Part shown: positions 1 through 57,276 of the stretch, piece after piece | How the letters are laid out: the number at the start of each line of letters is the position of its first letter | How positions within the stretch are numbered: the first letter of the stretch is position 1 | Source: Blasia pusilla | Taxonomy: Eukaryota | Direction of reading: 5' to 3' | Assembly: GCA_050084515.1 (NCBI GenBank) | Contig: CM114271.1 | Location: forward strand, 33,356,001-33,420,000 | Length of the DNA stretch: 64,000 nucleotides | Position numbers and translations under genes: made by a program | Notes under the pieces: model-generated | What the model saw: only the letters and a program-made list of their open reading frames with translations | What the model was told of the DNA's origin: nothing | Database searches by the model: none

Positions 1-222
1 GACGAGGAGTTGGATTTGCCCGAGAGATGGTGGAGTTGCCCGTGGAGGAGGTAGAGTCCCACCACCTAGATGCGTCGAGGGAGACGCCATGCGTGAGCCT
101 CGGATGGCTACTCAGATACAACAGCTACATTAGTAGATTACTACTATGGCATTGAGGTTACCCGATGCCAGATCCGTGGCATTGACGTCTAATGGAGCCG
201 CCAGAGATATTTAAGATCTTGG

Positions 223-1089
223 TTGGATGTGCGAGGTTGCCCAGATGGAGGCCGCGCAGTTGTTACGCGTGGAGGAGCGGGAAAGTTGGATCCACAACGA
301 GGGGAAGCCAGGAAACAGACCAAGATTCCTCATTCTTTTACGTTGTCCGAGGTGATGAGGACCCCATCGATGGATCCTGAACAGAGTTCTCGGAGAGTTG
401 GTGATCTTGTTGGTGTGCAAGCACATAGATTGATGGGAGAAGCGAGTGTGATGACTCCTATTGCTGATGCCCTGGAGGAGCATCTGTCAAGCACGTTGTT
501 GGGGGCGGCCACTGTTGTGTACCGCCCTCCTTTGTTCTCTGCTTTCGATGTTATGACGTTGGAAGGTACGCCCGCTGAGTTTTTCCGGCTGGCTGCGGCG
601 CTCTGGGAGCGTGGAGTTGGAGTTCCTGCATCACGTTCAGAGGTGATTGCAGAGGAGGTGATGGACCTGCCCTTGGAGCTTATGCTCGGGCCATCCACTT
701 CAAATTCATGGCAGGCTGCGGTTGCTAGGATAGCGGAGATGCCTGCTAGACCCGCGATAGAGTGTGCCATGGCTTCTCCTAGTGTTGTTTTGCTGGATAA
801 CCAGGGAGAGGTATTCCAGTTGGTGAGTCCAATAGGTAGAGCTTTTAGTCCACAGTGCGTCTTGTTGGATTCAGGAGCGCAACCTGTGATGTTGGGGAAA
901 GCATCATTCAGAGGATTGGGCTTGACGAGAGCCAATATGGAGCGTTGTCCATCCCGGATACAAACATCCTTGGGTGGAGTGAGTACCATACAATATATCA
1001 CCCGACATAAGGTTGTGGTGAGGATTCATCTCGGACACCCTACAGATGAGTCTGTGGTGCGAGCCAAGGCGATAGTGACCGATGCATAG
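223..1089 (+). pseudogene. Retroviral-type aspartic protease region of Gypsy copy 1
   Basis: CVLLDSGAQPVMLG active-site motif; continues past a TAG into YDVLVGG. Confidence 0.8.
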
Positions 1090-1578
1090 TCCTACGACGT
1101 CTTGGTTGGTGGAGCAGTGTTGTACCCAATGGGGTTTTCCCTAGATTATTGGGAGGAGTCAGCGTCCTACAGACCAAGATGGCAGTTAGGTGATGGGCGC
1201 CTTAGATCATTACCCATTCGATTTACAGGTGGAGTGATTGAGCGACGGCCACGAGAGATGGAGACCTTAGCATCATTTAGCAGCGCCATCACTTGGCCTA
1301 GTGATTTGATTGAGAGACATGCCCATGTAGAGGACACTCCCGTTCTTGACATTTCTATGGAGAGGAGTGTCATGGTTGCCGCATCAGTCCTTGGAGGAGA
1401 GATGCCGCTTTGGGGCTCAACTGAGGAGCTTCGATGCTTAGCCACTGAGCATCTGCAGACCACGTGGAGCGAGATGTTTGCACTAGAGCGTGACGGGTCA
1501 GAGGAATATGAGGTAGCCAAGAGTGCTATGATGACACCCTTGGATACCATACCCCTTATGTGGCGCATCCTAAAGGAG

Positions 1579-2520
1579 GGTATTCGGGTGTTGGATCTCT
1601 TTGGAGCGATCAACACTGGGTTAGCTTTTGTTTTGTACGCAAGAGTATGTGTGCAATAGTATCTGTATGTGGAGATTGATGATGTTGCGAGGCGCGCTTC
1701 ACTTCACCATGTGGCGCAGTTACGCCTCCGTTTTCTTGACTTGTTGTCTGCGTCCGCTGTCCACGGATACTAGAGTTCCCTACCAAGGGATATTTCATTG
1801 TTGGGGGCGTAGGACTTGGAGCGGGTAGGGGCCATAGATTTGGTCATTGCTGGTTGGCCGTGTCAGGGCCAATCGAGTGCTGGATGAGGTAATGGGTTAG
1901 GTGACACTCGGTCCTGGTTGTTTTGGGAGATGATGCAGATTTTGTGACACTTACAAGAGCATCAGTCTCATTCTCCAACATACTTTCTGGAGAATGTGCC
2001 GATTTTGGGCGATTTGAGGTCCCGCGTGGCGACGAGTGCACATTAGATGCGTACAAGGATTGGCTTGACAATGTTTTTGGATGCAGCAAGTGTAAGTTCT
2101 AGAGCACACTACCGGCGTCTTTGGTGGACCAACTTGGTGCCACATGAGGTTTTGCGAAGGGCATATGCGAGAGTGGAGCGCCCCTCCCATTTTTTGGTGG
2201 ATTGCATTATGGATCCAGGTCGTCGATCACGGGAATTGAGGCACGATGATCGATCGCTGTTGACTGTGGTCAACAGGATTGGCATGCCATGGGCAGCCTT
2301 TATCACATTTGTGAGTTTTCCCGCTTCCTATGCATTCCAGGAGGTCGGACTTGGCTTGGTTTGGGATGACCTGGTACAAAGGTTGGTACGCCAATGAGCT
2401 GATGAGCGAGAGCGAGCGATGGGATTCTCCACAAGAGTGACATCAATACCATCACTATCAGAGGTATCATAACGTCATGTCTTGGGTCAGGCGATGGACC
2501 TGAACTGCTTGACATGGATT
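1579..2520 (+). pseudogene. DNMT3-like C5-cytosine methyltransferase domain within the Gypsy polyprotein (copy 1)
   Basis: One frame read through stops gives motif I IRVLDLFGAI, II YVEID, IV IAGWPCQG (catalytic Cys 1861-1863), VI LENV (1990-1998), VIII RRLWWTN, IX ERERAMGF and X RHVLGQAM. Confidence 0.92.
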
Positions 2521-2866
2521 TTCAGCTTAGGAGTAGATAAGCAAGGTTCTTTAAGGATACGACAGATCACAGCTCTTGCGTTGGTGAGCCCCATGCCTAC
2601 CGAGACGGTTGAGGCAATGGTTGGGGGCGAGACTCGAGGAGATTGACACACCAGGGATGAGCGGGAGAGACACCCTTGGACTTCTTGGGATGTTTTGCAG
2701 GTACGCCAAGATGATAGCCACAAGAGTGAGCATGGTTCCGAATACTGCACGTGGAGATGAGAGTTTGCAGTTGGCTGCACGAGAGCAGTCGAGTTTGATT
2801 ATAGGAGACGAGGCTGCACCATAGCAACCACCGACACCCGCGTCGAAGAGTCCTACCGTAGTCACG

Positions 2867-5721
2867 ATGGAGACTTGGGAGCCAGATATGGGCCCTAAGT
2901 TGACAAGAGGAAAGCGGCGCCAGATACACCAATTCCTTAGGAGTTATAGGAGTTGTTTTGCATTTAGCATGCAGGATTTGGGTACGCTGATGGATCTAGG
3001 GATACGCATTGATTTGTCGAGTGACATGTCGATCTTCCGACAACCCTACAGGTATAGTGACATGGAGAGGGCTCTGATTCATAGTAGGAGCTAGGACTTG
3101 GTTGGAGCAGGACTAGTGGAGATGTCGCATGGAGGGTATGCATCTGCAATTGTCATGCCCGCCAAGAAGGATGTGCATGGAAATTGGATGAATAGGCAAA
3201 TTTATGGAGATTACCGATCTATCAATCGGCAAACGAAGTTCGATAGGTATGCCATACCCACCCTTGAGGAGATCTTTGATGCTATTGGGCATGCAAAGGT
3301 CTTCAATTCTTTAGATCAACGAGCTGGATACCATCCGCTACCTATTAGATTGGAGGACAGGCAGAATATGACATTTTGGGGCATCAATCCTCACGAGAAG
3401 GATTTTTTGTACTAGTGGCAATTCTTACCATTTGGGTGAAAGAACGCCCCGGCTGAGTTTCAGAGGGTCATGGATAGGATCTTGGCAGGTCTGGATTTTG
3501 CTAAGTGTTATATTGATGACATTGTAGTCTTTAGCGCCATGGTTGAGGAGCATGAGCAACATCTAGAGGAGGTGTTTCGACGATTGCAGTTACATGGGTT
3601 GAAGCTACATCCAGGCAAGTACAAGCTCTTCTACGACCAGATTGAGTACCTGGGTCATATGATATACCCAAGGGGCCTTGGTGTGCAGCAGATGAAGGTA
3701 GAGGCTATTTCACACATTCCACGCCCTACAGATGTGAGTCGAGTTCATGCATTCATGGGATTGGCAAACTTCTATCGACGCTATGTCAAGGGTTTCACTT
3801 CGATTGCGAAGCCGCAAACCTTGCTGACCAAGGTGGATCAAGAGTGGCACTGGGGGGATGAGCAAGAGAGTTCAGTTGCTCAAGGATACATTGACGTCCG
3901 CGCCCATATTGAGGAGACCGATCAAGGTGCGTCCTTTCTAGTTGCATACCAATTGGCGCATGTTGGGGCTTGGAGCCATGCTCACCCAGCATGACAATGA
4001 TGGTAGAGAGTTCGTGGTGGCTTCTGGTAGTCGCTCGAACAACGCTGCAGAGACAAAGTATAGCTTGTATGAGGGCGAGTGCTTGGCTGTAGTGTGGGCT
4101 GTCGCATATTTCAGCTTTTAATTTTTCGGAAATCCCTTTACCATCATTACTGATCCTCAACCACTTAAGTGGTTGATGGAGTCCGATAAGCTTCCAGGGA
4201 AGCTTGCAAGGTGGACTCTTTTGTTGCAAGAATATGACTTCCAAGTGGTACATAGACTTGGGACGCTCAACCAAGATGCAGATGGTTTGAGCCATAACCC
4301 ATGCTCGAGTCAGCGAGATGCGACTGGAGCTCGATGGCATGGAGAGAGTGATGAAGAGTTGGTGCCAAGATGACACGCGTCAGCCTATTTGGGCTTCTTG
4401 GCTATAAAGAGCCAGATTGCTGATACTTTGATGGCGAGGTTTGATAGAGAGTCCTTAGATCCAGAGGTCGGTGAGGAGACAATAGGTGGCTGAGATATTC
4501 TCGACGATGGAGTAGTCTTGGAGTACCTGCGTACTGGCAGTGTCGCGAGCACCGTGGGTGCTAGAGAGCGGGATCAGATCCTACAACGAGCCTCAATATG
4601 GGCACTGTTCCGGTGGGAGGAGACACATATGTTGTGAGTGTGGGAGGATGGTAGAGTGCGTGTAGTGCCTCATCCTTCGTAGAGAGCACTTTTGGTGCGT
4701 CATGCCCTCTACGAAGGATGAGGCACCAAAATGACGAGAAGTTGGATCATTTTGGAGTGAAGCGGACGTACGGCTTGCTCTAGATTCAATATTGGTGGTG
4801 AGGCATGCAGACTGACGTTCAATAGTTTGTTGTTAGATGCATGGTGTGTGATCGAGTCCGGGCATCGTTTAATGCTCCGACTCCACAGTTGCATCCATTT
4901 CCGATCATGGGTTTAGGTTATAGATGGAGTTTGGATTTTGGAGGACCTTTACGTTTGACGGAGCGCCATAGTTGTTATGTGTTGATGATGTTGAGAACTT
5001 CTTCAAGTGGATAGAGTTGGTTGTATTTCTTGACAAAGCAAGTGAGGGAGTAGCATATGCCTTCCTAGATCGGGTGCTGAGTCATTACGGTGCACCAACT
5101 GAGGTGTTGATAGACCAGGGTACAGAGTTCCGCGGGGAGTTTCAGGCCTTGAGTGATCAGGCACTAATCGACCATCGCTCTACTTTGCGAGATCATCTTG
5201 AGGCGGATGGACTAGCAGAGCGGGTTGTGCAGACGGTGAAGAGAGGATTACACAAGTAAGGCTTGTAGAGAGGTCACCTAGGAGATTGGGACCTCCAATT
5301 GCCGTGGTTCGCGATTGGATACAGATTCAACAGGAAGGCATCCTCAGCGTCTTTCTCACCGTACTTGCTTTTGTATGGCCGAGAGCCAAATTTACCTATG
5401 GCCATTCGTCAAGATGTTGGTGAGGTGTTGAACCTTGATGAACCTGATGTATGGAGGCAAGCATGTTCTCAAAGGGTTGAATTATTTCGGAGAGTGGTGC
5501 CCATGGCGTTTGAGAACTTGGCGATTGCACACCATCGGGATACATTGAGGTATGTGACTATTTTGGGACGTGGTTATCGACCTACTATCCGGAGGTTTCA
5601 TCAAGGAGACTATGTCTACCTACAGCATACGGCACCCACGACGTTGGATGTGACAACAACGCGCATCATCTTGAGAGTGCGTGAGATTTTGCCATCAGAT
5701 GTTCTCTTATTGGAGGGACGC
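2867..5721 (+). pseudogene. RT - RNaseH - integrase of Gypsy copy 1
   Basis: DYRSIN, PFG, YIDDIVVFS, EYLGH, AFMGLANFYRRYV, LARWTLLLQEYDF, DQGTEF, DGLAERVVQTVK. Confidence 0.93.
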
Positions 5722-6994
5722 TGTCGTGTCGAGAGTCTTTCTTCGAGTAAGGGCAGGCCTTCTAGCTGCGGCAGACGCGGTCAATGCAAGATGAACTCTC
5801 TGAGAAGATCTCCTTTTTCAATATAAAATTATTATGTATACTCTCCATTCTCTCACGACAAGTATCACAAATGGAAGTGCCGAGGCGATCACTTCTTCGT
5901 AACATCGGACCCCAAAATTCCTAACTATAAAATCCCTATAAACTATTTTACGCTTGTATACGAGGAAGATAGCACAACTAGTATTAAACCCTACTTGAGC
6001 AGGCATATTGACGTCCATGGATCGCTATATAAGGACATACAAAGTACAATCCCATATCCTTCCATATGTGACGATAGGAAGGATCACCGAAGTTGGAGAT
6101 TGAATGACCTTGTTCATGAACGCCTCCCCAAAGTGATAAACTAAATAGCGAGTGAACCAGTGCCTATCTACAAAGAGTATCTTGACATGGTATGGATTAA
6201 GGAAAGGAAAGTCGGGCACAAATCATGTTCCACCCCTATCCATGTTTGATAGACATTCTCTACTCTCCTCAAGAATGGGTTTTGGCGGAGTTATTCTCCC
6301 AAGAGGAGTAATCCACTCTCATTAGGAAAGTAACAAGCCAAAATATTCACTATTTTAGTACGACTAAACTCTTCTAAGGTGACAAACCTCTCATCTCCAC
6401 ACACACACACCACACTCTAGAAACCTCTTGAAGAATAGACCATGGTCAAGTTACTCTCCCAAGAGGGGTGATCCACTCTCATTGGAAGAGCAAGCAATCC
6501 CAAAGCCATACACTCAAGAGTGACACGAGAGACTCAAGATGTGGAATAGAAAGTGATGAAACCTTGAAGGTCTCTCCTCTTTATATACTCGCAAGAGATC
6601 CACAAGAGTACGAAATAGAACTTATCTTATTTTGTGCCACATGGCTTCCTCTCAAGGCTTAGCCTATCACATTTGGACACAAATAGATTTCCTCTTATCT
6701 CTTCCAAAATATCCTCTTTTACCCACTTGATATTTTCCAAATTACCCCAACTAACCTAGCCACCAACCAAGACTACTTTTGCTTTTCATTAAAGCAACTA
6801 CTTTACTTTTATAAAGTCATCTTTTATTTATTACCTCTTTTTCTAAAGTTGGGCCCGCATAAAAGAGGCACCATAAAGAGGTTTAAACATAAGAATTTCC
6901 TTTTTTCTAAGCCAATTTACTTAATACTAATGAAACCCTATCTAACACTTAATGACAAAGGAATTTACATACTGGTTGATTTTACTATACGACA
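5722..6994. mobile_element. Solo LTR (~1.27 kb) of a second retrotransposon family, inserted in the integrase of copy 1
   Basis: Ends tgtcgt...acgaca. Perfect 4-bp TSD acgc (5718-5721 / 6995-6998). Removing it restores LLEGRDGMVW. Near-identical to 58845-60104. Confidence 0.9.
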
Positions 6995-7106
6995 ACGCGA
7001 TGGTATGGTTTGGAAGGATCATGTGCGTAACTATGTGCCGTGTCACCTTCCGAACATTGACGGTATAGTTGATCCAAGCTTAGCAGTAGTTCCTGCAAGC
7101 TTGCGA

Positions 7107-7241
7107 TGTATGTTTTGTGGTTCTGCCCGCGGTGCAGCCACTATGCTAGTCTATGATGGATGTTCGAGAGGATGGCATATTGCATGTTTGACACCACCTC
7201 TCACTTAGGTTCCTCATGGACGATGGATGTGTCCCAGATGT
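7107..7241 (+). pseudogene. PHD zinc finger at the integrase C-terminus (copy 1)
   Basis: CMFC...MLV(Y/C)[28 protein letters not shown] fits C4-H-C3 PHD spacing; copy 2 supplies the Cys missing here (VCDG). Confidence 0.88.
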
Positions 7242-7428
7242 ACATACCGTAGCTAGTTCTACATTCCGACTTGTGTCTGTGACATGGATGACAAGAAGGC
7301 GACTAACGATGGGGCCACATGAGCACCCGGCCTTCTTGGTCTTATCGTCCGAGAGATGTATGTCACGGTAGGTAGGGATAGATGGCTATCTGGAGTTAGA
7401 GGGACCTAACCACCAGCTAGGGGGCGAT

Positions 7429-7554
7429 TGGAGATATTTTGGTACTTCTTGTCTCGTTGTTTGGATGCCATGAGTTAGGATGGGATCGTGCGTGTTTGTG
7501 TGTGTGTTCGGTGACAATAATGTATGTTGTGTAGCGATGTGTATGCGTACGACA
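7429..7554 (+). repeat. 3' LTR (126 bp) of Gypsy-DNMT copy 1
   Basis: Follows the PPT and runs TG...CA. The same 126-bp unit lies inverted at 57798-57923 and stands alone at 57151-57276. Confidence 0.75.
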
Positions 7555-8377
7555 AACACATGAATTGTTTTGGTGTTACCAAAACTCTCTTCCTCCATTT
7601 AATTGACTTCGATGACACTCTTCGATCATGAAATAGAACATGAATAAAGTTTGAATATTAACTTAGTCATCTTCCGTGGTTCCCAATCATAAAGGTAACC
7701 AATTGGGTGTCACTAAACATTCCACCTTCAAAATTCCAGGCATAAAATAAGTCAAAAACATCCATAATGATAACTAAAATTGTCTCTTTGAAATCTTCTT
7801 CTTTTTCACCTTCTAGAGTATGCATGTCCTCTTGTTGTTCCAAATAAAACAAGTAAAAAAAATTAATGAGAAACCACTACCTCTCAATACGATAAAACTA
7901 TGGAAAATGTCGTCGTTGTTTTTTCAACCCGCGAAATATCATATCTACCCTTCCTCGATCTGCGAAAAAGATTTAAAATTTAAAATAAAACCGGAAGCAA
8001 ACGGAACCGCACACGCTCCGTTGCCTCGACCGGAGCCGTTCCCACGGTAGCGTGAGCCGGAGAAGGGAGGCTCCATGTGAACCGCCCTGTATATAACATT
8101 TTGGACTATGACGAGGCCGCTACCACGACCATAGGAGAACGTTGAAGTGTGGACTACGCCCTTCTACCTTGTGGTAAGAACTCATGGTTGCTGCATGAGC
8201 TCACTTGGAACGCGGTCTGTCCTTCCCTTACGAAATCTCCACCCTAAACCCCGAAATGTAAAACCCTAACTGTAACTGGTCAGCTCTCGAGTGAGCTCTG
8301 GGGAAATTTGCTCACGAGCAAATCGAGTTTGCATAATCATTCCGTGGTCGAATTGGTGTGTAGATTGTTTGCACGCA

Positions 8378-11097
8378 ATGGGACAGAAGCGGAAGCCTGT
8401 GGCAGTAGAGGAGCCTGCGCCGGTGCAAGTTGAGCCAGCGAGGAAGCGGTCTTTGCTGAAGAGAATTGGAAACGGAGAGGAAGCGCAGGATGGAGATGAG
8501 AAGACTAACCGGTTTCGCAATAAGGAGAAAGTCTTGATCCTCTGCTCCCGTCGCATCACATTCCGGTGTGGTAATTGGGGCTTTTATGTGGTGGATTGAT
8601 TGCTGTACAGTCGTGTAATTTTCTTCTGTCACTATTTGTTTTTCTTTAATGTGCGTGAATGCCCGGTGTTCAGGTATCGGCATCTGATGATGGACATCAC
8701 AGGAATGCTACCGCATAGCAAAAGGGACGTGAAGGTGCAATGCAAGGACAACAAAGCTGCGACTCTCAACGAGCTAGTGGACCTGAAAGGTTGCTCCAGC
8801 TGTTTGCTTTTTGAGGTATTCGTCTCTGCCTTAGCTGTCTGGTAGGAAAGTTGTTGAAATCTTACTGACTGTACTACACGAAGAGTAATATTTCGTTTAC
8901 AATGTACAGAGGTAAAATTTGAGTCATAAGGTGACCTCGTCAACTGTAGTACTTACCCGCTGCGTACGTGGAAACGAAAGCATTGGAAGATTTCGAGCAT
9001 AGAATGGGAGGAACAAATTATGATAGTCAGCAGGTGGGACAGATAGGATCATGTCCAAAAGAAGGCTACTTGCAACTGAAATTCATCATCTCTGGTTGTT
9101 ACTTTGTGGTTCTCAAACAACATTAATTTCATGAGTTATTTTGCCAGTGATTTGTAGTGTTGTTGCAGTATTTCGTAGCTTGCACTCCTGAACCTTTACA
9201 GAATTTCACAGAATACTTCCGTGAAAGCTATAATGATGGGAAGGAGCTCTTACATTCCTGGGCGTTTGGTTGCTGCTATGGATTAAAGTATAGGAGACAT
9301 CACACTATCTTTTCAGTAACATTAGATTGGAACGAAGGGACTTGCTGCACCCAATGATCAAACATTATAGCATAAAAAATCTGCTTTAAGAAAATGGAAT
9401 CTAATATTTTCGTAAATGCAGTGTAGGAAGAAGAAAGACCTGTATGTATGGATGTCAAAGTCTCCGAGTGGACCATCAGCAAAGTTTTTGGTCAGTGGAG
9501 GTGCGTTATGAGAACACTCCTCATTTTGATTTGTATTTCTTCCACTACGAAATTCTACTTCTGTCCCCCCAACCAGACCTTAAGATTTATTTGATGGATT
9601 TGAATGTGCGTGAACCTGACAGAGACCTAGACATATTAATTGAATTTTAACTCGAGCTGTCAAATTGGTGCAGTTCATACCATGGCAGAGTTGAAGCTCA
9701 CTGGCAATCACCTGAAAGGTTCTCGACCACTAATTACGTTTTCAGCAAACTTTGATGAACAACCCCATCTTCAGTTGTTGAAAGAGCTTCTACTGCAGGT
9801 AAAAGTGTGAGGTCTGAAGAGTTGCTGCCTGAGATCATTACTGAAAATTCTTGTTATATCTGTTCCCAACTGATTCAAAAAAACATATGTGATCTGGAGA
9901 GCTAATCATTGGTTAGATTTTTATGTGCAGGTCTTTTGTACACCTAAAGACCATCGCAAGGCTAAGCCATTTTTTGACCATGTGTTTGCCTTTTCAATTG
10001 TTGACAACCATGTCTGGTTTCGCAACTACCAGGTCAGTAATTTCCCACATAGCTCATTTGTGGAAAAGAAAGATTTTGCTGCAGGACTTGTGCAACTTGG
10101 TACTAGTTGGGAATTTGGAATAAAGAGGTGCCTCGGATGTGTCATCAGATTTCTGCAGCCCAGCAGGGCACCGATAAGTTGGACAAGATAGACAGAGCGA
10201 GTTTGGAGAGAATGACTCTCATTGAGGTAAGATATGAAACTGTTTCTAAATGTGTTGAAATTTTATAGCATTTTGTCCAATTTTTCATTTTGGTGGTTGG
10301 CTACTCAGCCAACTTCACCCTACCTCAAGGGATTTGAATTGTGTCTCCAGTCATACTTTTGAACTCCTGAATGGGATTCACATGTGTGGAATGTTGGAGG
10401 GCGCCTAGGAGATGTGCAACTACTTGCTTACAGGTCCTTCTCCGGTTGACAACTTGAAAACTAAATGGATGTTTCTGCACCCGCAGGTTGGTCCAAGATT
10501 CTGCTTAAATCCAATCAAAATCTTCAGTGGGAGCTTTGGTGGGGCAACAATTTATGAAAACCCCTTCTATGTTTCTCCTAATGCGGTATGCCTTGGCCCC
10601 CTTTTCTCCAGTCTAGTTTTCATATATGTAGGAAAGGAGAGTAAGGAAATTCCTTCTCCAAGGAGTTGGTGTCTAGGTACTAGCTGGTGCGAGGGGATAA
10701 CCTTGGGCAATAAGAAGAGGATAGTTGAAGCTGGGTATCCGTATTGTTGTGATGCACTGAGAAAGGTCAGGTAGTTTTGATCACCTGAACAGCTGTCTTT
10801 CATCTTTGTGATTGACCTGTTCTAGAACCATCTGTGCTTGGTCTGCTGCAAGAGGGTCATAGGTGGTTCTCAAGTAACTGAATAACTGACCAGCAGTGGT
10901 CCTACCAAAATTGGAACCTCCTGAACAAGTACTGATATTTCTGTAGTTGTCTTCCTCAGGCACGGTCTATGGAGAAACGTAAGAAGGCTGGGAAGTATGT
11001 TAAGAAAATCAAAGCTAAGCAAAGGAGGAGAACTCATGTGGCAGATAATCCAACTGCCCAAGACGAGCTTGCCCATGTGTTCGATGAAGAAGATTGA
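8378..11097 (+). CDS. BRX1: Ribosome biogenesis protein BRX1 (Brix domain), 8 exons: 8378-8565, 8674-8815, 9422-9500, 9674-9798, 9931-10032, 10149-10226, 10487-10585, 10960-11097
   Basis: GT-AG introns join into an open frame with NKEKVLILCSRRITFRYRHLM, HTMAELKLTGNHLKGSRP, KPFFDHVFAFSIVDNHVWFRNYQ and EVGPRFCLNPIKIFSGSFGG. Confidence 0.95.
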
Positions 11098-12539
11098 AGT
11101 AGTTTTCCTTCACAGTTTTCTCTCCTGGTTCTTGCTTGCACTGCAATTTTGCAAGGACTTAAAACTCTCTGATTTTTATAAGAGATAGGCTTTAGAGATA
11201 TTCAAATAGTGAGAGTTTAGGTCAAAGGCATTTAGGCCTTAAACCGCCAATTCCTTAGGTTTCACCTGAATGTGTGCATTTTGTACACTATTAGGGCGAC
11301 TAAAAGCAGTCGCTGTAGAGGAAATGAAGTCTGTTGATTTTACTACGGTACAAATTTTGGAGGATGTTTTATGAATTGCAGATATTCAGCTTTGAGTGCT
11401 GCCAAGAAAAAAATTATGGCATTCAGATTATGCAAATATTTGCCATACACAGAAGCCATAGAAGTCTGTTGTTGAGTGGACTGCCAGGCACTCATTATGC
11501 CAAGTCACTCTGATAGAGTTCTGTGGAGGCTGCTTTCTGGGCAGCCCTTGAGTTGCCCTCTCACACTAAATGGTCTTGTCTCCAGGTGTTCTAGTAACTG
11601 AAATCTGTGGACCAGAAGTGACTTCAATTGGACACTTGGTATTGCATGTAGCTTGTGCGTCTTCTTGTGCATGTGAAATATGATTCAACTCCTCCAACAG
11701 AAAGTACTCGGAGGACTGCATGCCAATAGCCTCTTCTTCCTGATCAGTCAAGCCCTTGGTCTCCCTAATAAGATTTTCTTGCCCTGGTCTTGAGTACCTC
11801 CATGAATAGACGAGCCACTACTCTTAATCTCTTAATGCTCACAATGCCATACAGACGATCCGGAACTGAAAAAGGGCACTAGTTCGACACGTCACAGTCC
11901 GATCTGCACCTGCCTGGCACACTTGCATCCAAGTGAAGTTGAGCCTTTGCCTTAAAAATCAACCCTCTCTGGATACTCGCTGAAGCCTTGGCATACTTCA
12001 TCCAACCATCCCTACAAATGTCGCAACTTTTATGATGGTAGGTTCTCATTACTACATTTGTGATTTTAATCCCATTATTGAAAGACATTTCTAAGGGCTT
12101 CTATATTGTGTCGATATATGAACTGAATTAATTGAATTAATTGAATTAATGAAAGAAAATTAAAACATCATAATGATCGGCTAGTCTGTAGTATTTGTGT
12201 GCGAGCAAGTTACAATTTCGGAACAAGTGGCCAATTAAAACAGACCTCAAAGTCAGATCTGGAAATGCGGATATTTAAATAAAGGAGGCCTTCGACCACA
12301 ACCCTGAAACTATGCATCACATGTTCTGGTTTGGAATCATACAAAACCTGGATTTTTCACTCCTTCTGGATGTCTCTCCACTAGGATTGATATATCATTC
12401 GACAACATCGAAATAATTCTTTCTTAACTGATTTTCATTCTTAAAAAGGTAATTAAATAATAAACCCGAAAATAAAATTTGAAGAGACCTGTAGAGATGT
12501 TGTAAATGGTAAGAGATTAAATTCGATGCCCCTTACGAA

Positions 12540-12658
12540 TTGAGAGGGACCTTACACGCACTCGTCTGTTTTGCTTCCCTCCACACTCATCTTGTTTTCA
12601 TGAAAGAAATGAGTGTGGAGGGAAACAAAACAGAGGAGTGCGTGTAAGGCCCTCTCAA
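12540..12658. repeat. Near-perfect ~119-bp foldback (MITE-like or hairpin-RNA precursor)
   Basis: Arm ttgagagggaccttacacgcactcgtctgttttgcttccctccacactcat pairs with atgagtgtggagggaaacaaaacagaggagtgcgtgtaaggccctctcaa, about 50 bp with few mismatches. Confidence 0.85.
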
Positions 12659-12932
12659 AGGGCAGCACACTGTTTTTGCTGTTATGGGATTGTTAATTCA
12701 TCCATTTATTTTATCATTAGGGATAAGCTTTTGATAATGAACAGATTGATTTGGAGGGGTGAGGTTGGTTTTGCGAAAGGTGACGGAAAGACGGGAGATT
12801 CTTATTCCATGCGACGAGTTTTCTGCGGAGGATTCTCATCTTTCCAAAGTGGGAATGAATTGAAGAAAGACGAAACGAAACTTCAGGACACAGATTTGAA
12901 TCCATCGCGGTGTTGCAAAAGCGCATGCCGCA

Positions 12933-15900
12933 ATGGATGCGCCTCAATCACCGACAACTTCTACCAGCACACCTTCTTCTCCTTCGTCCTCGACGGCGGG
13001 AGCGACTTCGGATCCAGGGTCTGCTGTCGGGACCGCTGAGCATACACCACCACGCCGACGCCTCGTGAAAGCCACCTCGTAAGCGATGCAATTTTTTCTG
13101 GTGGTTTTTTGGTGCGATTTCGTTGTCAATTTCTGATCATAAGCTTTGGAATTCTGAAGGTGTAGGTAGGCCAGTGGATTTTCAACGTTTCAACCTGCGG
13201 CCGGCCGCTCACTCACGCCGCTCGCTTAGCCACTTTACACTGAGGAACTCAGTCTTAGTCAAAATGATTGACACTCCAAGCCATGTGCTGCACTCACAAA
13301 AAACCCCTTTGCCCGTTGGTGAAAGAAGACGGACCTAAAGAATCCTCAGCGTTTGTGCACCGGGTGTTTCTTGGGGTTCCGAGGGTATTTGCCTCTTGAT
13401 ATGCTAAACTAGAGAAGGAATCACAGTGCCTTGACGAAATCATTTTAAGGTGAAGTAACTGGAACGGAGATGCCCTGCAGTCGACATGCGACGAGAGGGA
13501 TAGCACGGCGACCTGGACTATTCGTTGTCAGGGCTTTTTGCTCGAGATTAGCATGAATTCCAATTGCTTGATTAGAGAACCATGAGCAGCAACCCCCGAG
13601 AAACCCTGTTGGGTCAGTGGCCTGAAGTTACGTCACACGCAATCGCAATTCGTCTTGGAAAAGGTCGTAGGAGGAGCCGGTTAGCTTTGTGATGATCAAG
13701 TCACCCAGCGGATTACCTCGCCGGTAATTTGATCTCCGCCCATCTTCAAAGATCCTTTGCAAGGTGCCGGTTGTGACCGGCACTTTGAATTGGTTGGAAT
13801 GGGATCGTGGGTGGAAGAAATTGCTCCCACAAATTGTCTTCCATAACAATTCAGGGGTTGTAGGTAAGGTGGATTTCACAGCTAGAAAGTGATGTCGTGT
13901 ATGAGGGACGATGTGTGTGAGCAGTTTTAAACACTACAAAATTTTCATTTCTCTGATCCGCCAGGCGGTCCCACTTTGATGAGCAACCACCACGGGTAAG
14001 CTCCAAGCGCGAAGGAGGTGGAGGTGGGACAGGACCACCAGGCTTTGTCTTCGATCGCTCATCAGGAACTCCATCGCCAACCTCAGCTGGAATGATAGCA
14101 GGTCCAGCCAGCTCTGCTCTCGGAGTGCCATCAGTACCTGCAGGCATCGCTGGAACATTTCGAGACCGAGGCGTGATCCGGCCTAATGTGAAAGGTAAAC
14201 TGAATTTCTGACTTCCCAAATCGCTTAATGTACATATTCCGCCATTAACACTGATTCTTTCCTTTCCGATCTCTTCAAAGTGACCCTGGATGATCGGCTT
14301 GGACAGGATATTGTCTCATTACTACTGGATGAAAACGTTCCTGCAAATAGATAAGAGTTTCTTGTGTCCCTTGGGAGAGAAGCTTCAAAGCTTGTAATGA
14401 GGATGTATGCAATTATCACTGCACAGGCACTCACTGTGCTCTACCGAGCGAGAGTAGATCAAATTTGGTAAAACCAATTCCAATGTTTTAATCTTCCATA
14501 CCATGTTAGTTTCTGTATATTCTCAATGTTATTGTTGGAGGAGGCGTGGACTTCATAAGTGTTACTCTTATTTGTATTAACTATGAATTGGCAGACGCAT
14601 GTTTTAACCTCAGCTTAGTGCTTGAGTAGAGGTTTCCAAATCTTCTCAATTTGCATCTTCTTAAAAAGCTTTGACTTGGGCAACCAAACTGTATGCTGGT
14701 TCACAGGTGATGTACAAGGGGACTATAATCCCCTCGGGCCGGCTGGTGGTTCTGGTCCCCCTAAATTGGGAAGGTGAGGACTGAAGTCCTTGCATGTCAA
14801 ATCCAACACCTGAGCTTATGTATCTACCTGGTTGTTGTAATTGCAGTTTGTTTAGGATAAGGAGAAAAGGGTAACCTTGTTCAGCTGGTGGCAAAAGATG
14901 TATTTTTTTTCTGCAGTGGTTCTCGTTTCAAGGATTTTATTTGCTAGTTGCTTTGTTCAAATGAAAGTCCTGGTCTGTTTTCTGCTAGACATGTCCAAGG
15001 TAGGGTGCATCCTAACAGCCAGTGTGTGTCATTATAAGTTGTTTTCCCTGTTCTCCAACATGGGGAGTTGTGGTATTCCTGACATACCAAAGATGTGATA
15101 TGGTCTGATCTTCCCTCAAACTGAATATGTGCTGCGACTCCCCATTCTGCTATTTTTTTCCTATCAGGCGCATTTAATGTTGTTTCTTGGCTTTGCCTTG
15201 GTCTCTGTATTGAGCTCACTCCACATAAATGCCTGTAAAGTATGTTTGGTTTCTTCTTTCTTTTTGACATTTTTATGGGTTCTGTCACTGAAAATCCATG
15301 TCAGGCGTTGGTCCACCAGCACCACAGGTTCTTTTTGCATCTCAGTGGAATTATACTTTATGTTAAACAAAATTAATGAGTTCTCTGAGGGAGTATTCTT
15401 GTTGGCTTTGTCGAAAGAAGCTGCAGCACATGATTTCTGAGGATGACATATATCTGTTCCATTCAAGCAACCTGATGAATGACTTTTGGCATCCTATAGA
15501 CCACCATTCGCTGCGAATCCTGGGATAACAGATGTTCGACCACTGGGACGGCGTGCAGAGGTATACCTAAGCAGTTGCTTGGATTTCTAGGATAAATGCG
15601 CTAGGTAAAATTTAGATGTATGGGTGGTTGGAGATAATTTCATGTAGTTGCTTTGATGTGGTTTGGATGTGACCTATAAACTCTGGTTTTTTGTGAAGGT
15701 GGGCAATCTTCGTAGACATGAAACATCATCAGGGCAGAAGCATGCAGAAGATATGCGAATTCAACAAGCCAAACGGGCTCGGACTCAAACACTTGGTGCT
15801 CCAGGAAACTACAGAAGCTTTGACTCCCAATTTGGGAATTTCCTAGTCCCGGTGATTCCCAATCAATTTTTCAGCAAGACACCACCATCACCAAGCACAC

Positions 15901-15938
15901 CAGCTGCACCATCTGTAACAAGTCAAGGTAGTCGATAA
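12933..15938 (+). CDS. Uncharacterised low-complexity Ser/Pro/Gly-rich protein (~247 aa), 5 exons: 12933-13078, 13965-14194, 14707-14773, 15500-15560, 15699-15938
   Basis: Canonical GT-AG sites with compatible phases (2,1,2,0) give one open frame MDAPQSPTTS...GNYRSFDSQFGNFLVPVIP...QGSR*. Confidence 0.75.
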
Positions 15939-18900
15939 ATCACACAGCAAGCAGAGACGAAATCCTATCATTTGCCTCCAATGGACCAAATTTAGGATTT
16001 ATAGTGGTTGGGTATGTTCCAATTTAATTATTAACTCAAGGAACAAAGAAATGGAGCCAAAACCACCATAGAAACTAGAAACTCGTCACTTCACATGGCT
16101 GTAACTGTTCTTTTTGCACCATCTTATAGGTGGTATTTCTCACACGGGAATGGGACAGAGACAAGAAACTAAAGGTGTGGATGGTTACCACGTCAATGGC
16201 ATCTAAAACCACCTCAAGACCCTCCACAACGCCTGAATTCCTTAGAAAGGGTTGCCTCCAAGGAGCTCATCCTTCAGAAAATCACCCAAGGGCTCCACTT
16301 TCTCCTTCAATGCCTGCATTACTGAAGCAATCTGTTATCCGTGAGTTCATCCTTCAGGAACGTATCTAAACGTTCACTTTTCTCTTTAATGCTTGCATGG
16401 CCAGTGGGAATGACATTCTCTTGCTGAGCTTGGTTTTCAAGACTCTTGTAAAAAGTACTGGATTTCTTATGTCCTCTAACATCTATCTAAATGTCGTAGG
16501 TTCATTGATAAACTTTCTAATAGGTGCTCATGGATGAGAGGAGTGGATGACCTTTTTCTCCATTACCCTAGTTTTAAACTCACTTACCCCTCGGGAGGAG
16601 ATAAGGAATCATGAGGATTAAGTAGTTTAGTTGCCTATGTCTGACCGATCAAATTTTGAAGTGCAATCTGTCTGTGAATTTGAGACCCTTGCAATCTGTC
16701 CACGTGAATTTTGAAATTCCTGAAAGAGAGTGTTAGGAGCTGACCCAATAGATGAGAATTCTTCAGCCCAGTGACATTTTTTTGACATGTAATTTCAACT
16801 CCCGATTCATCTGTGGACCAAGACAATAGGACCTCTTTCTGGCCCTCTCCTGTCATCATGTTTGTAAATCCACTTGTGTCTTTGTAAATGGATCAAGATT
16901 CATGGCTGGCCAGCCATTCCCTTTTCACCTGATTTCAAAATCACTTGCCACTGTTATATATAGTGTCTCGAGCAGATTTCAGATCCAATAGATGATTGTT
17001 TAAAATTCAAGATTCAGTTCTATTGGTAAGATTGCACTATGAACTGAGAGCAATTCTACCTCTTTAGGAAGGACTGTAATCAAATGCGCAATAAATGTAA
17101 TTATTTAATTAATCTTCCTTTTGCTCTCTTAGGACTCAATCCAGTCCATATCTTAGATTCGACTCTTCACATTATTTTGTATCTTAGTCGGATGAAATTT
17201 TCTATCCCTTTTTATGCTGAGTGTTGTTTCCTTTGCGTGGGTGGAAGAGTGGGAGAATTGTTGAATCACTTTGTTTTCTTTTCTAATGATTTTTCCTGAA
17301 AGAAATTGTGTTTCTCCACGGCCACAAAAGTGGAACTGTTGCTAAGATGCGGACATTTCAACATGATCTGTGTCTAGTTGGTTTAGTTTTGGTTGTCTAC
17401 TGTAGTTTTCCAGCCCTTTGTAAGCTGGAAAGTGGCCCATCCTTTTCGACACAACTAATTTTCCTAAAGATTTCAGGCTGAGAAAGATAATGTCAGAAAT
17501 GAGAGGAAACTAGATTGAACTTGCCTTCTGTACAGTGTTGGAGTAGTCATCTGAAGTCAGATAAAGAGGCCATGATCCATTTACAAAGAGATGAGTATGC
17601 TCTTATGTTTGGAGTAAACAATAGAACTATGTGCATTGTCACTACTATGAGCTCTTGTAGACGTGAGTTTATTCTATGTTAATTCTTGTCGATGTTGGTC
17701 TTGGCTCAAGACTCCAGAGGCTTGAAGAGAGAATTGGAGCGACTTGAGTATCCAGCCATGAAAATTCTGAAGGAGCCCCAATTGGGGCTTTCAATTCTAC
17801 TATGCGTTGGATTTGAAAGTCTTTAAAATTCAACAAATGCGTGTCATGTTAGAAGTAATCCTAAATTCGAAGCCCTCTTTGTTTGGTGTGATGAGCCATG
17901 TGCAATATTCATATTATGTCTAAAAGTGAAGAATCATTTGATAAGATGACAACCTTATGATTTGTCTCTTTCATGCCTTTCTCCAACATTCATCCTGCAT
18001 ACTTTTGATTTTTTTGTTTTGAAATAGTTGAAGCCAAGTGTTCCAACTTACAAGTTATGTATCCAAATTTTGGGTATGAGATCAATTTGAAAGACACATA
18101 ATGATTGCATTTGTGAACTCATATGGTTGTTTCTCAAGTAGCTTGTAAGTTTCGCTCCCTAGAGGCATTCTCTAACACTCATTGAGCTCATCTACATCCA
18201 TGCTTGGCACACGAGTAGGGGTTTGGTTCACTAATTTTTTTTTCTAATCTTCCATTCCATCTTCCATGGAGTAACATTCTAAACAATTCTATGAATGCGC
18301 ATTGGATCTCCTGGCCCTTCTCTTTTAAATTTGCATAATTGTGTATGTGGGGAATTTGTTGATGCAAAAGATATCCACACTCTTCGATGTGCACTTATGG
18401 AGAATAATTGGTCATTCATGATTTGATTAAAGATATAATAGGATCAAAGACTTGTATTGCACAACATATTGTTGGGCAAGAGTAGTTACATATCGTACCT
18501 TCTACTACTCAAATAATCCCCCGTCGATGAGTTGATCTTTTCTTGTTGGTTAAAACACTTGCTGACCAAAGGCTCGTAGGGATTGCTGGATTTCTTATTT
18601 TACAAACTCATAATATGATACCCATAGGGTAGGGAGCATAGTGTGAAGTTTCTAAGTGGCTTTTATCTATTTGACAATGTGGTGGTTCTTAATCGAACAC
18701 GTTTTGACTTTAATTGTTAGGTACGTAAAAAAGATTTTGCAAATGTTGCAACAAGAAGAATTAGGTTGTGCATTGAAACATTTAATCAATAGATTTATTC
18801 CTTTCATAGAGGAAGTTTTTCCGGCATTGAAATGTAATTTTTCATACTATCTTTCAAATATGTGCTGATTATTCCCTTGAGGATCATTAAAGTCGCCCCT

Positions 18901-29714: not shown

Positions 29715-32700
29715 ATGGCTACTTCTTCGTCAGTTCGTGCTCGTCCTCCTCCACTGGGTGAAGGGAAGTTAGATGGGTCTAACTATACGTTGTGGAAGTT
29801 CAAAATGAGAACTGTCCTCGAATCATTTGAGATCTGGGAAACGGCCACAGGGGTTGATTCAAATCCACAAGCTAGTTTGAGTTCTGCATGTTCATCTTCA
29901 TCTGGGGATATCGATCATGTTGTTGGCATGGAGACGCAGAAACGCTGATGCTCTATATGCGATTGTCACGAATGTAACTGATCTTGTCATGACTCTCATT
30001 CAACATACAACCATTGTTGTTGAGGCGTGGAACATTTTGAAGAATCAATATGAAACGAGGAATGAGACTCGGATTCAGAATCTGGAGAATCAACTTACGT
30101 CTGAGAAATTTTCAGAAGGAGAAAGCGCGGAGCAATTTTTGACAAGGATCAAGAATCTTCAAGATCAGATGGCGTCCGTAGGAATTTCAAAGTCTAGCGA
30201 AGATTTGGCACGTCGGTGCATAAGGATTTTGCCTCCAAGGTATGTCAGTTTGGTCACTGCACTGAATACTCAAGTAAGACCCACGCCGCTTACTTTTGAA
30301 CAATTTAGTGCAATGTTGGTAGAAGAGGAAATGCGCTTCAAAGCAAGAGAGAGAAGTAATGCAACATTTACTGCCAACGTATAGAGAGGTAGAAATCAGG
30401 ATTACAGTTCAAATGTCAAGAAGAAATTTCCAAGAAAAGCCTTCAAATGCTTTTATTGTGGTAAGCTAGGTCATCTTATCAAAGATTGTAGAAAGAGGAG
30501 TCAAGATGAGAAGAACGGTTGTTTAAGACCTAAGAAGGAGTCTGGAAATTCTGTAGAACTAGGAGAAGATGAAGTAGATGCTTGGGTAGCAATAGAAGAG
30601 TTTTGCACACAGGCAGAACATTCCACTAAGTCAAAGAGTGAAGATGCATGGGTGCTCGATAGTGGAGCATCTTGGCATATGACCAATCATAAGGATTGGT
30701 ATAGCTCCTTTCAGTCTCTACAGGAGCCCATCGTTGTTACTGTTGGAAATAATGCAAAGTGCCATGTAGAAGAGAAAGGCACAATTTCTTCAGTCTCACA
30801 AAAAGGAGATGAAAAGAAGTTAACTGATGTACTAAACGTACCAGAGTTGAAGCGAAATTTGATTTCAGTGGTAGTATTATGTGATCGTGACCTAGAAGTT
30901 TGTTTCAAGAAAAGTGGAGCAGTCATTGAGGATGCCAATGGGAAAGAAGTGGGTGAAGGAATACCACGTGGAAATATCTACGAGTTGTATGCTTTCACGA
31001 CAAGTCTAGGTACAGATCTTAGTAGCAATAAGTTGTGGCATGAAAGATTTGGTCACCTAAGCTTTCCCCTACTAAGTCAGATGCAGAAATCTGACATGGT
31101 TACTGATTTACCAACAATTTTTGGAGTGTCGGATACTTGTGAAGCTTGTATGATGGGCAAGCAACACCGACAACCATTTCCACAAGAGTCCAGCAATAGG
31201 GCAAAGGCTCCTCTAGAGTTGATACATACTGACCTCTGGTAAAATGAAAATAGTGGCATTAGGTGGTTCTTCCTACTTCTTTTTAGTTGTCGACGATTAT
31301 AGTAGGAAGATGTGGGTGTATTTCCTTCGTGATAAGGCAAGTGCTTTTGGAAAATTTAAAGTATGGCACAAGCTGGTTGAGAATGAGATAGAAAAGAAGG
31401 TACAAAAGCTTCGCACTGATCGAGGAGGAGAATTCTTATCAACAAAATTCAATAAATATTTGGGGGAGCATGGAATCAAGTGACAGTTAACCACGGCACA
31501 TACACCACAAAAAAATGGAGTTGTTGAGCGTCGAAACCATACAGTGGTGGAGATGGCAAGATGTATGATGAAAGCAAAAGGTTTGACAGAAGGATTTTGG
31601 GCTGAAGCTGTTAATACTACCGTATATATTCTAAATAGAAGTGCTACCAAGTCAGTGCAAGGCATGACTCCTCATCAATCATACTTAGGTAAGGTACCAT
31701 CAGTCCAACATTTCAGGACTTTTGGTAGTGAGTGTTTTGTACATATTCCTGAAGCATCTAGGACCAAGCTGGAGTCCAAGAGCAGGAAGTGCATCTTTAT
31801 GGGATACAGTGATGAGTCTAAAGCTTATCGCCTTTGGTGTCCTGAGGAAAAGAAGATGCTTGTGAGTCGTGATGTGGTGTTCCAGGAACAACCTCGTCAA
31901 GTGGCGGATATCAGTGGTCCGTCCACATTATCATCAAACGAAGAGATAACCCACCAGAGCATACCACAAATGTTTACACCAGATCATCAAGAAGAAGAAG
32001 AAGAAGAAGGATTTGGTGATGATTACAAAGAGCAACCTGCTCTTCCAGTGCGGTCGTCATATCCTAAGTGGATAAAGCAGCTCTTGGATGGTAAGGATCC
32101 ACCAGCAACTCATGAAGTTGTTACACATCCAAGGAGATCCAAGAGACTAAAGGAGCAGAATAGAGCTTCCACACATCTCGTCAACATGGCCTTGATGACA
32201 TAGGTCTTGAAGGTGGAAGAGCCATCATGCTTGGATGAGGCCCTTGCTCATCCTCAATGGAGAGAGGCCATGCAGATGGAGATGGACGCTATTCAGAGGA
32301 ATGAAACTTGGACTTTGGTTGAAAAGCCAAAGGACAGGAAGATAATACGCACCAAGTGGGTATACAAGACCAAGTACAAGTCGGACGGTACATTGGATAA
32401 ATTCAAAGTGAGATTGGTCGCACAAGGATGCTCACAAATCAAAGGTTTTGACTACTATGAGACTTTTGCTCCTACTGCAAGGATGACAACCATTCAAATT
32501 GTTCTAGCAGTTGCAGGAACAAGTCGTTGGCCTGTATACCAATACGATGTGAAGTCTGCCTTTCTGAACGGGAGTCTCAAGGAGGAGGTATATGTTTCTC
32601 AATCACTAGGTTTTGAGACACTCAGATCAGAAGAGAAAGTTTGTTTACTTCATCGAGCATTGTATGGGTTGAAGCAAGCCCCAAGGGTATGGTATCAACG

Positions 32701-48832: not shown

Positions 48833-49232
48833 GCCCTACCCCCTCGTTATGAACGACATCACGCTCTGTCGCAGGGGACCAGTTGCTGTTCCAGAGAAGT
48901 ATAACACCCACCGCACTTTGCTGTGTTGGCAGTGAAAGCAGCGCATCTTCGAAGAACCGTGTGCAGTGAGAGTGCAGAGGAGCCCTCTCTTCCGCAGTGA
49001 ATGTGCAAGAGGAGCCTCTCTTCCCTATTTACCCCTCGGAGCAGCACGGAGTGCCTCAAGTTGTCCGCCTGTTGAAGCAAAGAGATCATAGGGTCTTGGA
49101 GAAAGATCGATCTGTGAGAAATTCGTGTCGTTTCGGGGAGTGTGGGAGGAGACGGTCGGGAGTCCGTAGGGTTGCGGAGCGAGGTCGATTTGTGAGGAAT
49201 TTGCGTTTGTCCGTGCTCGGGTCAGTTCCAAG

Positions 49233-56970: not shown

Positions 56971-57150
56971 ACAATTGCCACGTGAGCAAGGTTGCACGGA
57001 AACGGACAAGCCCAACATGACCACGGACATGGAATATTGGATGCCAGCACGGGTTTTTGTGGCGCCCAAATCGATCGCGTGGGCTTCAATTACAAGCCAC
57101 CAGTGCAGGCTCCGATGAAGGGTGCGGGCCTTGAAGCCCACGTCCAAGCT

Positions 57151-57276
57151 TGTCGTGCGCATACACATCGCTACACAACATACATCGCTGTCACCAAACT
57201 GAAACATAAACATGCAAGATCCCCTGCTAAATCATGGCATCCAAACAACGAGACAAGAAGTACCAAAATATCTCTA
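57151..57276 (-). repeat. Stand-alone copy of the 126-bp Gypsy-DNMT LTR
   Basis: Same length and ends as 7429-7554 (reverse complement); no TSD visible. Confidence 0.75.

Follow-up and report, generated by a model that had tools for sequence, protein, structure and literature searches.

A DNMT3-like methyltransferase domain upstream of a putative readthrough stop codon in a Ty3/Gypsy retrotransposon family of Blasia pusilla

Two inverted copies of a Gypsy element

We analyzed a stretch of 64,000 nucleotides from Blasia pusilla (GenBank assembly GCA_050084515.1, contig CM114271.1, positions 33,356,001 to 33,420,000 of the forward strand), hereafter the window, numbered from its first nucleotide. 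The ends of the window are occupied by two inverted copies of one Ty3/Gypsy retrotransposon, in which a DNMT3-like C5 cytosine methyltransferase (DNMT) domain lies between the protease (PR) and the reverse transcriptase (RT). The two copies are 84.1% identical over 4000 aligned bases, and the Gag region and 5' long terminal repeat (LTR) of both lie beyond the window ends. Alignment of relatives' proteins by tblastn recovered the order PR, DNMT, RT, RNase H (RH), integrase (IN) and PHD finger in both copies, in agreement with the domain order proposed in an initial annotation of this locus. The alignment was split into six frame pieces in copy 1 and into more in copy 2. Both copies are old and thoroughly dead, each with stops and several shifts of frame. 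In copy 1, the PR-DNMT frame (1090-2694) contains 9 in-frame stops, 8 of them in the DNMT domain and the ninth at 2644. The features of the two copies are as follows.

1-7556, plus strand: copy 1, decayed, cut by the window start
193-1175, plus strand: copy 1, C-terminal Gag/linker and aspartic protease (relatives' PR aligned in the DNMT frame)
1537-2640, plus strand: copy 1, DNMT3-like C5 cytosine methyltransferase domain (Pfam, motifs, relatives' alignment)
2641-2821, plus strand: copy 1, poorly conserved tail between DNMT and stop (alignment of both copies)
2822-2830, plus strand: copy 1, in-frame TAG followed by CAACCA (matches UAG-CARYYA)
2855-4634, plus strand: copy 1, RT and RH, over two frames (Pfam, tblastn)
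4712-5717, plus strand: copy 1, IN (zinc-binding and core), over two frames (tblastn, P0036 residues 1451-1790)
5722-6994, minus strand: foreign insertion of 1.27 kb in copy 1, not part of the element (TG..CA ends, 4-bp duplication)
6995-7244, plus strand: copy 1, IN C-terminal extension and PHD finger (Pfam, tblastn)
7245-7556, plus strand: copy 1, 3' non-coding end, terminating in ACGACA, probably part of the 3' LTR (alignment of copies, reads)
64000-57150, minus strand: copy 2, decayed, cut by the window end
62608-64000, minus strand: copy 2, end of the PR region and DNMT domain (tblastn, motifs)
62469-62471, minus strand: copy 2, in-frame TAG followed by CTACCA (one base off CARYYA)
57150-62432, minus strand: copy 2, RT, RH, IN, PHD and 3' end (tblastn)

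Seven pieces of the window were scanned with Pfam. Copy 1 matched RVT_1 (58.1 bits) and RT_RNaseH (34.3 bits), and the decayed PR and IN pieces gave no match, one piece having a sub-threshold chance match. The active site of the protease (DSG) is readable at 862-879 in copy 1. The PHD finger of copy 1 (approximately 7107-7244, with one stop within) scored 21.8 bits, below the cut-off of 24, and the PHD fingers of two relatives scored 38.5 (P0036) and 42.1 bits (P0044). In the tail that follows the DNMT domain, the TGA at 2644 of copy 1 corresponds to CGA in copy 2; this tail was of low confidence in the predicted model of a relative.

The methyltransferase domain

The DNMT domain was identified in copy 1 by Pfam DNA_methylase (PF00145; 41.8 bits, cut-off 22, E = 1.2e-10), the frame 1090-2694 being scanned with X in place of stops, and the same family was matched in all six relatives scanned (30.7-46.5 bits). 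The initial annotation had placed C5 methyltransferase motifs in both copies, in frame with the protease. This was borne out: motifs I, IV, VI, VIII, IX and X occur in canonical order in both copies, and relatives that carry the domain in frame align to copy 1 in a single frame from 247 to 2700. The positions in copy 1 are listed below; in copy 2 the same six motifs lie at 63668-62752 on the minus strand, with one frame change near 63080-63060.

1588-1620, plus strand: motif I
1852-1869, plus strand: motif IV (GWPCQG)
1987-1998, plus strand: motif VI (LENV)
2113-2133, plus strand: motif VIII (RRLWWTN)
2404-2427, plus strand: motif IX (ERERAMGF)
2485-2505, plus strand: motif X (GQAMDLN)

Motif I is degraded in the window copies (GAINTG and GGISIV) compared with GGISTG in Marchantia. 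Comparisons of sequence and structure with the Protein Data Bank (PDB) were made with the DNMT domain of L001, an intact relative described below. The 29 best of 44 matches in the PDB sequence search were DNMT3A, DNMT3B or DNMT3C (E from 1.7e-7 to 4.8e-5), followed by the weaker matches M.HaeIII (6.7e-5), M.HhaI (3e-4) and the DRM structure 4onj (0.0069); no DNMT1 was among the matches at E up to 0.01. The alignment to DNMT3A was collinear through motifs I-VIII and IX-X, so the domain, unlike that of plant DRM, is not permuted. An AlphaFold (AF2) model of the L001 domain, built on an alignment of 27 sequences, reached a predicted local distance difference test score (pLDDT) of 74.3 and a predicted template modeling score (pTM) of 0.73, with a confident core at residues 1-330 and a disordered tail. 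When this model was searched against the PDB with Foldseek, every listed match was DNMT3A, DNMT3B or DNMT3C (E about 6e-17), with target template modeling scores of 0.75-0.80 for DNMT3 catalytic-domain chains. A search of the ESM Atlas with the DNMT domain returned generic PF00145 clusters only and was uninformative on kinship.

Collectively, these comparisons show that the domain is a predicted non-permuted C5 cytosine methyltransferase closest to DNMT3 by sequence and modeled fold, as the resemblance of individual motifs had first indicated. Domains lying between PR and RT (type A hereafter) are 20-22% identical to human DNMT3A. PWWP and ADD domains, the readers of cellular DNMT3, had no Pfam match in the window pieces or in the six relatives. 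The protease sits directly upstream of the DNMT domain, and the PHD finger is on the integrase instead.

An in-frame stop codon between the methyltransferase and the reverse transcriptase

The initial annotation had proposed one uninterrupted reading frame from PR to PHD, reconciling two deletions in the DNMT-RT linker. Both deletions are real: copy 1 lacks 2 nt after position 2708, and copy 2 lacks 8 nt and has, further on, an additional in-frame gap of 30 nt. A GG after 2708 is present in 489 of the 1302 DNA reads from other copies, so that the 2-nt gap is not family-wide. The continuous frame, however, did not hold up, since an in-frame TAG stands between DNMT and RT at the homologous place in both copies (2822-2824 and 62471-62469).

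JGI metagenome contigs were scanned with the relatives' alignment; 600 stretches matched, 311 of them encode a relative, and 80 loci were kept. Two of these contigs, L001 and L003, carry essentially intact elements, in which the TAG separates Gag-PR-DNMT from RT-RH-IN-PHD.

L001: ORF1 976-5085, Gag with CCHC, PR and DNMT, 1369 codons; TAG; ORF2 5086-8229, in the same frame, RT, RH, IN and PHD, 1047 codons
L003: ORF1 2477-4663; TAG; ORF2 4664-7807, in the same frame

The TAG is the sole stop across approximately 7.2 kb of frame in L001 and 5.3 kb in L003, and in a further locus, L004, it is followed by a 323-residue RT-bearing frame. A search for LTRs in the two intact contigs found no terminal repeats, apart from a 144-nt tandem in L003, and their ends are probably assembly ends; among the 38 relative loci of at least 9 kb, six have direct repeats of 283-310 bp spaced 8.1-9.8 kb apart. 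The C-C-H-C residues of the Gag zinc knuckle are invariant in 22 aligned relatives.

The proteins of relatives lend independent support to an end of ORF1 after the DNMT. Among 55 proteins found with the window DNMT domain, 27 contain PR and DNMT only, 6 reach RT or RH, 4 contain DNMT and RT, and 18 have other layouts. Five of the six that reach RT or RH are plant gene models, in which an intron may have been called at this place; the residues of P0008 skip window positions 2520-2855. Among close relatives with motif IX, 23 of 26 end 109-215 residues past that motif and before RT, and the distance from motif IX to the TAG in copy 1 is approximately 139 codons. Comparison of these elements and proteins establishes the family layout as a predicted Gag(CCHC)-protease-DNMT frame, one in-frame TAG, and an RT-RNase H-integrase-PHD frame. 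Because the TAG lies between the two ORFs of the intact relatives and the relatives' proteins end before RT, the DNMT would belong to the upstream, Gag-level product. It would be fused to RT and IN, with which the initial annotation had it packaged, only in a proposed readthrough product.

The alternative that the family encodes an uninterrupted PR-DNMT-RT-RH-IN-PHD polyprotein, and that the TAG is a product of decay, draws on the observation that DNMT and RT share a frame once both linker indels are set aside, and on continuous ORFs in P0034 and in the stop-free type A lineages P0196 (2240 aa), P0244 (2188 aa), P0055 and P0056. Against it, the TAG stands at the homologous place in two copies that are 16% diverged and in L001, L002, L003, L011 and L043, it is the sole stop of the L001 and L003 frames, and 23 of 26 close relatives' proteins end there. 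We consider this alternative very unlikely.

The nucleotides that follow the TAG suggest a possible mode of expression. The hexamer is CAGTTA in L001 and L002, CAATCA in L003, L011 and L043, and CAACCA in copy 1, and all three forms fit CARYYA. The second codon after the stop accordingly encodes L, S or P, with the YYA pattern always kept; a varied residue with a constant YYA points to constraint at the nucleotide level. Excerpts of PMC4132726 document CARYYA as a hexamer that promotes readthrough of UAG, mainly in plant viruses, with tobacco mosaic virus among the many examples.

Several observations weigh against readthrough as the family's mode of expression. The hexamer of copy 2 is CTACCA, which does not fit CARYYA, and in eight decayed relative loci the hexamer after the stop (TAG or TAA) is CAACCC or CAACCT, again not an exact match. 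In six other loci (L020, L026, L028, L029, L039 and L044) an in-frame stop precedes the RT-bearing frame and is followed by unrelated hexamers. The type A lineages without a stop, named above, count on the same side. At most of the 80 loci, decay has made this place unreadable; 74 loci retain motif IX, and in 8 of these the frame extends past the end of the locus. An RNA fold predicted downstream of the stop had no covariation support (0 of 34 predicted pairs).

Production of RT-RH-IN-PHD through splicing, reinitiation or a second transcript, with CARYYA a coincidence, would be favored by four points: readthrough is deduced from sequence, the downstream RNA structure is unsupported, the in-frame stop is followed by a different hexamer in several related lineages, and excerpts of PMC3441728 describe an in-frame gag-pol stop as rarely observed in LTR elements. 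On the other hand, a single codon separates the two ORFs, which share a frame; the start of ORF2 in the sequences examined meets no start codon requirement; and three hexamers of different sequence, encoding different residues, all preserve the pattern. We therefore regard a separate route to the replication enzymes as unlikely, and UAG readthrough as the preferred reading.

Relatives, phylogeny and selection

Close relatives were found in the liverworts Marchantia polymorpha (in many gene models, whose identity with the window copy is 56-57%), M. paleacea, Riccia sorocarpa and Calypogeia fissa, in the mosses Sphagnum fallax, S. troendelagicum and S. jensenii, and in the charophyte Closterium; all those named are annotated as hypothetical or with automatic names. 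A HMMER library search returned 2779 clusters at E up to 1e-3, 864 at E up to 1e-10 and 274 at E up to 1e-30. The best 150 clusters comprised 15 of type A, with the DNMT between PR and RT, 73 of type B, with the DNMT between RNase H and integrase, and 62 bare fragments. The named type B members are from chlorophytes (Hariotina and Scenedesmus).

The two types were compared in three trees, each of which separated them by a single split. A FastTree phylogeny of the DNMT domain (40 type A and 92 type B rows, after 32 full-length DNMT rows without a neighboring domain had been dropped) gave this split an SH-like support of 97, an IQ-TREE phylogeny of a DNMT subset (18 type A and 30 type B rows) an SH-aLRT support of 97, and a FastTree phylogeny of RT-RH (9 type A and 55 type B rows) an SH-like support of 99. 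In both DNMT trees the window copy grouped with Marchantia (support 100). The trees are unrooted, and their rows were all selected for similarity of the DNMT; they are therefore compatible with, and do not prove, descent from a single Gypsy-PHD ancestor that carried a DNMT, with the domain having moved once.

Selection was examined through the ratio of nonsynonymous to synonymous substitutions (dN/dS). Among L001, L002, L003 and L011 the ratio was 0.12-0.14 for the catalytic part of the DNMT, L043 having been excluded for its 11 stops in frame, and RT-RH among intact relatives had a dN of 0.072 and a dS of 1.43. Alignments of 22 and of 27 relatives show no variation in the catalytic residues. 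By these sequence measures, the DNMT is under purifying selection in the intact relatives. Between copy 1 and copy 2, the ratio was 0.41 for the N-terminal half of the DNMT, 1.03 for its C-terminal half and 0.33-0.46 for RT. The value for the C-terminal half speaks against a maintained enzyme, and is expected for dead copies; the ratios of the window copies are a mixture of earlier constraint and later neutral decay.

These data bear on whether the DNMT could be a catalytically dead passenger or a structural module. Excerpts of de Mendoza et al. 2018 (PMC5890265) report that the Gypsy DNMT3 of Klebsormidium produced no methylation in yeast, a result which the authors call inconclusive, and which would fit an inactive domain. 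Against this, relatives show little or no variation in the motif IV cysteine (PCQ), in ENV, in the arginines of motif VIII and in motifs IX and X, and catalytic conservation of this kind, with a dN/dS of 0.12-0.14, is unexpected for a mere scaffold. A dead passenger thus appears quite improbable.

Copy number, transcription and neighboring genes

The size of the family was gauged with a whole-genome DNA run carrying the same species label (approximately 2 Gb of sampled reads; 103,561 of 12.43 million records mapped). The depth per 400-base bin was approximately 900-2250 on the coding bins of the element (1-5600), compared with approximately 0.4 on the single-copy flank. By this rough measure, the family has a few thousand copies and the genome is several Gb in size. 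Copy 1 has A or T where the reads have G or C at 238 + 214 places, and the reverse holds at 104 + 115 places; the excess of A and T in copy 1 is a hallmark of C-to-T decay. The observed/expected ratio of CpG was 0.70-0.72 in the copies and 0.53 in the host flank, which carries no clear message.

The same junctions are found in both copies, in thousands of genomic copies as gauged by read depth, and in relatives from other species and from metagenomes. This refutes an artefactual origin, such as insertion of a transposon into a host DNMT gene or chimeric assembly; we found nothing in favor of such an origin, and its probability is negligible.

Sense-strand RNA covered the DNMT bins at a depth of 19-46 in all three RNA runs, the strand being judged from a spliced host gene adjoining the element. 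Most of the RNA reads are less than 95% alike to copy 1 and so come from other copies. These reads could stem from many defective copies, a point that weighs against the reading proposed below. An index of sequencing runs queried with the host stretch 9000-17000 listed no RNA run.

The reads also clarify the non-coding parts of the element. The 3' end of copy 2 (57150-57925) has two 129-nt direct repeats approximately 650 bp apart; that of copy 1 (7427-7556) has a single 129-nt repeat and is without the approximately 650 bp that separate the repeats in copy 2. Most genomic copies extend like copy 2, as seen from loose read ends at 7424-7555. Both copies contain an AT-rich block of 1.26-1.27 kb (5722-6994 and 58847-60104), whose site and orientation differ between the two. 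The block of copy 1 has the ends TGTCGT...ACGACA and is flanked by a 4-bp duplication, ACGC, and it looks like a solo LTR. The block itself is high-copy, and RNA mapped to it is antisense to copy 1. Position 5717 is joined directly to 6995 in 654 DNA reads from other copies, indicating that most element copies are without the block. Two independent insertions of the block within approximately 500 bp in one family may reflect an insertion preference.

Other genes and elements of the window are listed here.

8276-11400, plus strand: host gene, expressed, with seven GT..AG introns defined by RNA reads; its exons appear to resemble a Brix-domain ribosome-biogenesis protein
29881-33385, plus strand: Ty1/Copia-type element with long open pieces, judged from translations of its ORFs; Gag with zinc knuckle, protease, integrase and RT in Copia order
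36547-37590, minus strand: open frame of 347 residues in a region whose G+C content is like that of transposon copies
49170-50677, plus strand: intronless UDP-glucose 6-dehydrogenase gene

The frame of the UDP-glucose 6-dehydrogenase gene changes once near 49650-49700, which reflects either pseudogenization or an assembly error of one base. The last 343 residues of the protein are 93% identical to those of Marchantia polymorpha; identities are 90% with Sphagnum, 86-87% with fern and lycophyte, and 80-87% with seed plants. These values point to a land plant, and most probably to a liverwort distinct from M. polymorpha.

Proposed mechanism and significance

Taken as a whole, the observations are probably best explained by a high-copy Ty3/Gypsy family that encodes the DNMT in its Gag-PR product and reaches RT-RH-IN-PHD by UAG readthrough. 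The full-length RNA would be translated mainly into Gag-PR-DNMT, and a minority of ribosomes, aided by the tobamovirus-type CARYYA, would pass the UAG to produce Gag-PR-DNMT-RT-RH-IN-PHD. The methyltransferase would then be made in Gag-like amounts, enter particles by way of Gag, and be freed by the protease. More speculatively, the enzyme might methylate the element's new cDNA or the DNA around it, and the PHD finger of the integrase might steer insertion by reading histone tails. One point against a functional role of the enzyme comes from the literature: no enzymatic activity is known for any Gypsy DNMT3, the yeast assay of the Klebsormidium domain, which is the only one published, having given no methylation and been called inconclusive by its authors (PMC5890265).

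If the enzyme is active, its target could instead be host chromatin, rival transposons or RNA rather than the element's own cDNA. The placement of the DNMT in the abundant upstream product, rather than in a rare Pol fusion, and the thousands of transcribed copies of the family would suit such a role. Against this alternative, the predicted fold is that of the DNA-acting DNMT3 and not of DNMT2, and the present data fit each of the possible targets alike. We regard action on targets other than the element's cDNA as possible, with the balance of probability leaning the other way.

DNA methylation is the host's main weapon against transposons, and a transposon with its own de novo methyltransferase inverts the logic of this defense. 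A broader scenario, which we put forward tentatively and think somewhat doubtful in its entirety, is that a Gypsy-PHD lineage with a DNMT3-type enzyme spread across green plants, and that in streptophytes (Closterium, liverworts and Sphagnum) the domain moved once to the Gag-protease end, where it would be made in capsid-level amounts, with a leaky UAG gating the replication enzymes. In the present host, the family has thousands of copies and is still transcribed. Should some of these copies be intact, a land plant's methylome would be shaped continually, in part, by a de novo methyltransferase that a transposon makes.

In the plant lineage, a DNMT-bearing transposon has so far been characterized only in one charophyte alga. 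Elements of the same kind are common in bryophyte genomes, where their genes are annotated as hypothetical proteins, and they are a source of misannotated "DNMT" genes in bryophyte gene sets. The position of the DNMT differs from that in chlorophyte relatives and would place the enzyme in the Gag-level product, before the putative leaky stop. Natural copies occur in Marchantia, a tractable model, and the question of what a transposon gains from a methyltransferase becomes testable there.

Comparison with known systems

Excerpts of de Mendoza et al. 2018 (PMC5890265) describe DNMT3 domains that are carried by a Gypsy element in Klebsormidium nitens, and by DIRS and LINE elements in Symbiodinium. 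As far as these excerpts describe it, KnitGypsy-Dnmt3 is similar to the present family in being a Ty3/Gypsy element of a streptophyte host with an intronless, non-permuted DNMT3-like domain in its coding region, and in having conserved key residues under purifying selection (Ka/Ks below 0.2 there, 0.12-0.14 in the relatives here). It differs in the placement of its DNMT, which is described as part of the Pol polyprotein ORF, whereas here the domain ends the Gag-PR ORF, upstream of the stop; its host is a charophyte, and the hosts here are land plants. No protein named Klebsormidium was among the 55 proteins or the 120 listed domain matches.

The type B elements (Hariotina reticulata P0038/P0040 and Scenedesmus sp. 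P0273 'pol') share the RT-RH-IN backbone and the C-terminal PHD finger. Their DNMT is 31-45% identical to the type A domain, far nearer than human DNMT3A, and unlike here lies at another polyprotein junction, between RNase H and integrase. SymbioDIRS-Dnmt3 of Symbiodinium is likewise a retrotransposon-borne DNMT3-like domain, and excerpts of PMC5890265 report that two Symbiodinium retrotransposon DNMT3 domains carried out de novo CG methylation in yeast. It differs in that the element is of the DIRS type, with a tyrosine recombinase, and its host is a dinoflagellate; the authors regarded it as an independent acquisition (PMC5890265).

The closest parallel for the proposed mode of expression is tobamovirus-type (type I) UAG-CARYYA readthrough, in which, according to excerpts of PMC4132726, an in-frame UAG stands between an abundant product and a polymerase-bearing extension. 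Here, by contrast, the arrangement is found in a plant LTR retrotransposon whose upstream product contains a protease and a DNA methyltransferase, and readthrough is predicted from sequence. Fusion of a chromatin-reader module to the C-terminus of the integrase is known from chromoviruses, in which the excerpted text (PMC2864245) describes a chromodomain, unlike the PHD finger and DNA-modifying enzyme found here. Readthrough of a UAG codon is also used by gammaretroviruses, between gag and pol.

Full-text searches of the literature returned no account of a Gypsy family that carries a DNMT in land plants, of a DNMT placed after PR, or of a stop codon that separates it from RT; the figures or species table of de Mendoza et al. 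2018 may list bryophyte copies. Later papers, to the extent of the passages retrieved from them, contain only the phrase "streptophytes (Gypsy-DNMT3)", used in two papers, which refers back to that study (PMC12344493, 10.64898/2026.05.21.726589, PMC11982613, 10.1101/2021.02.12.428880, PMC6453930). The type of element is therefore already known; the present family extends its host range and adds another position of the domain and, as a proposal, a readthrough mode of expression.

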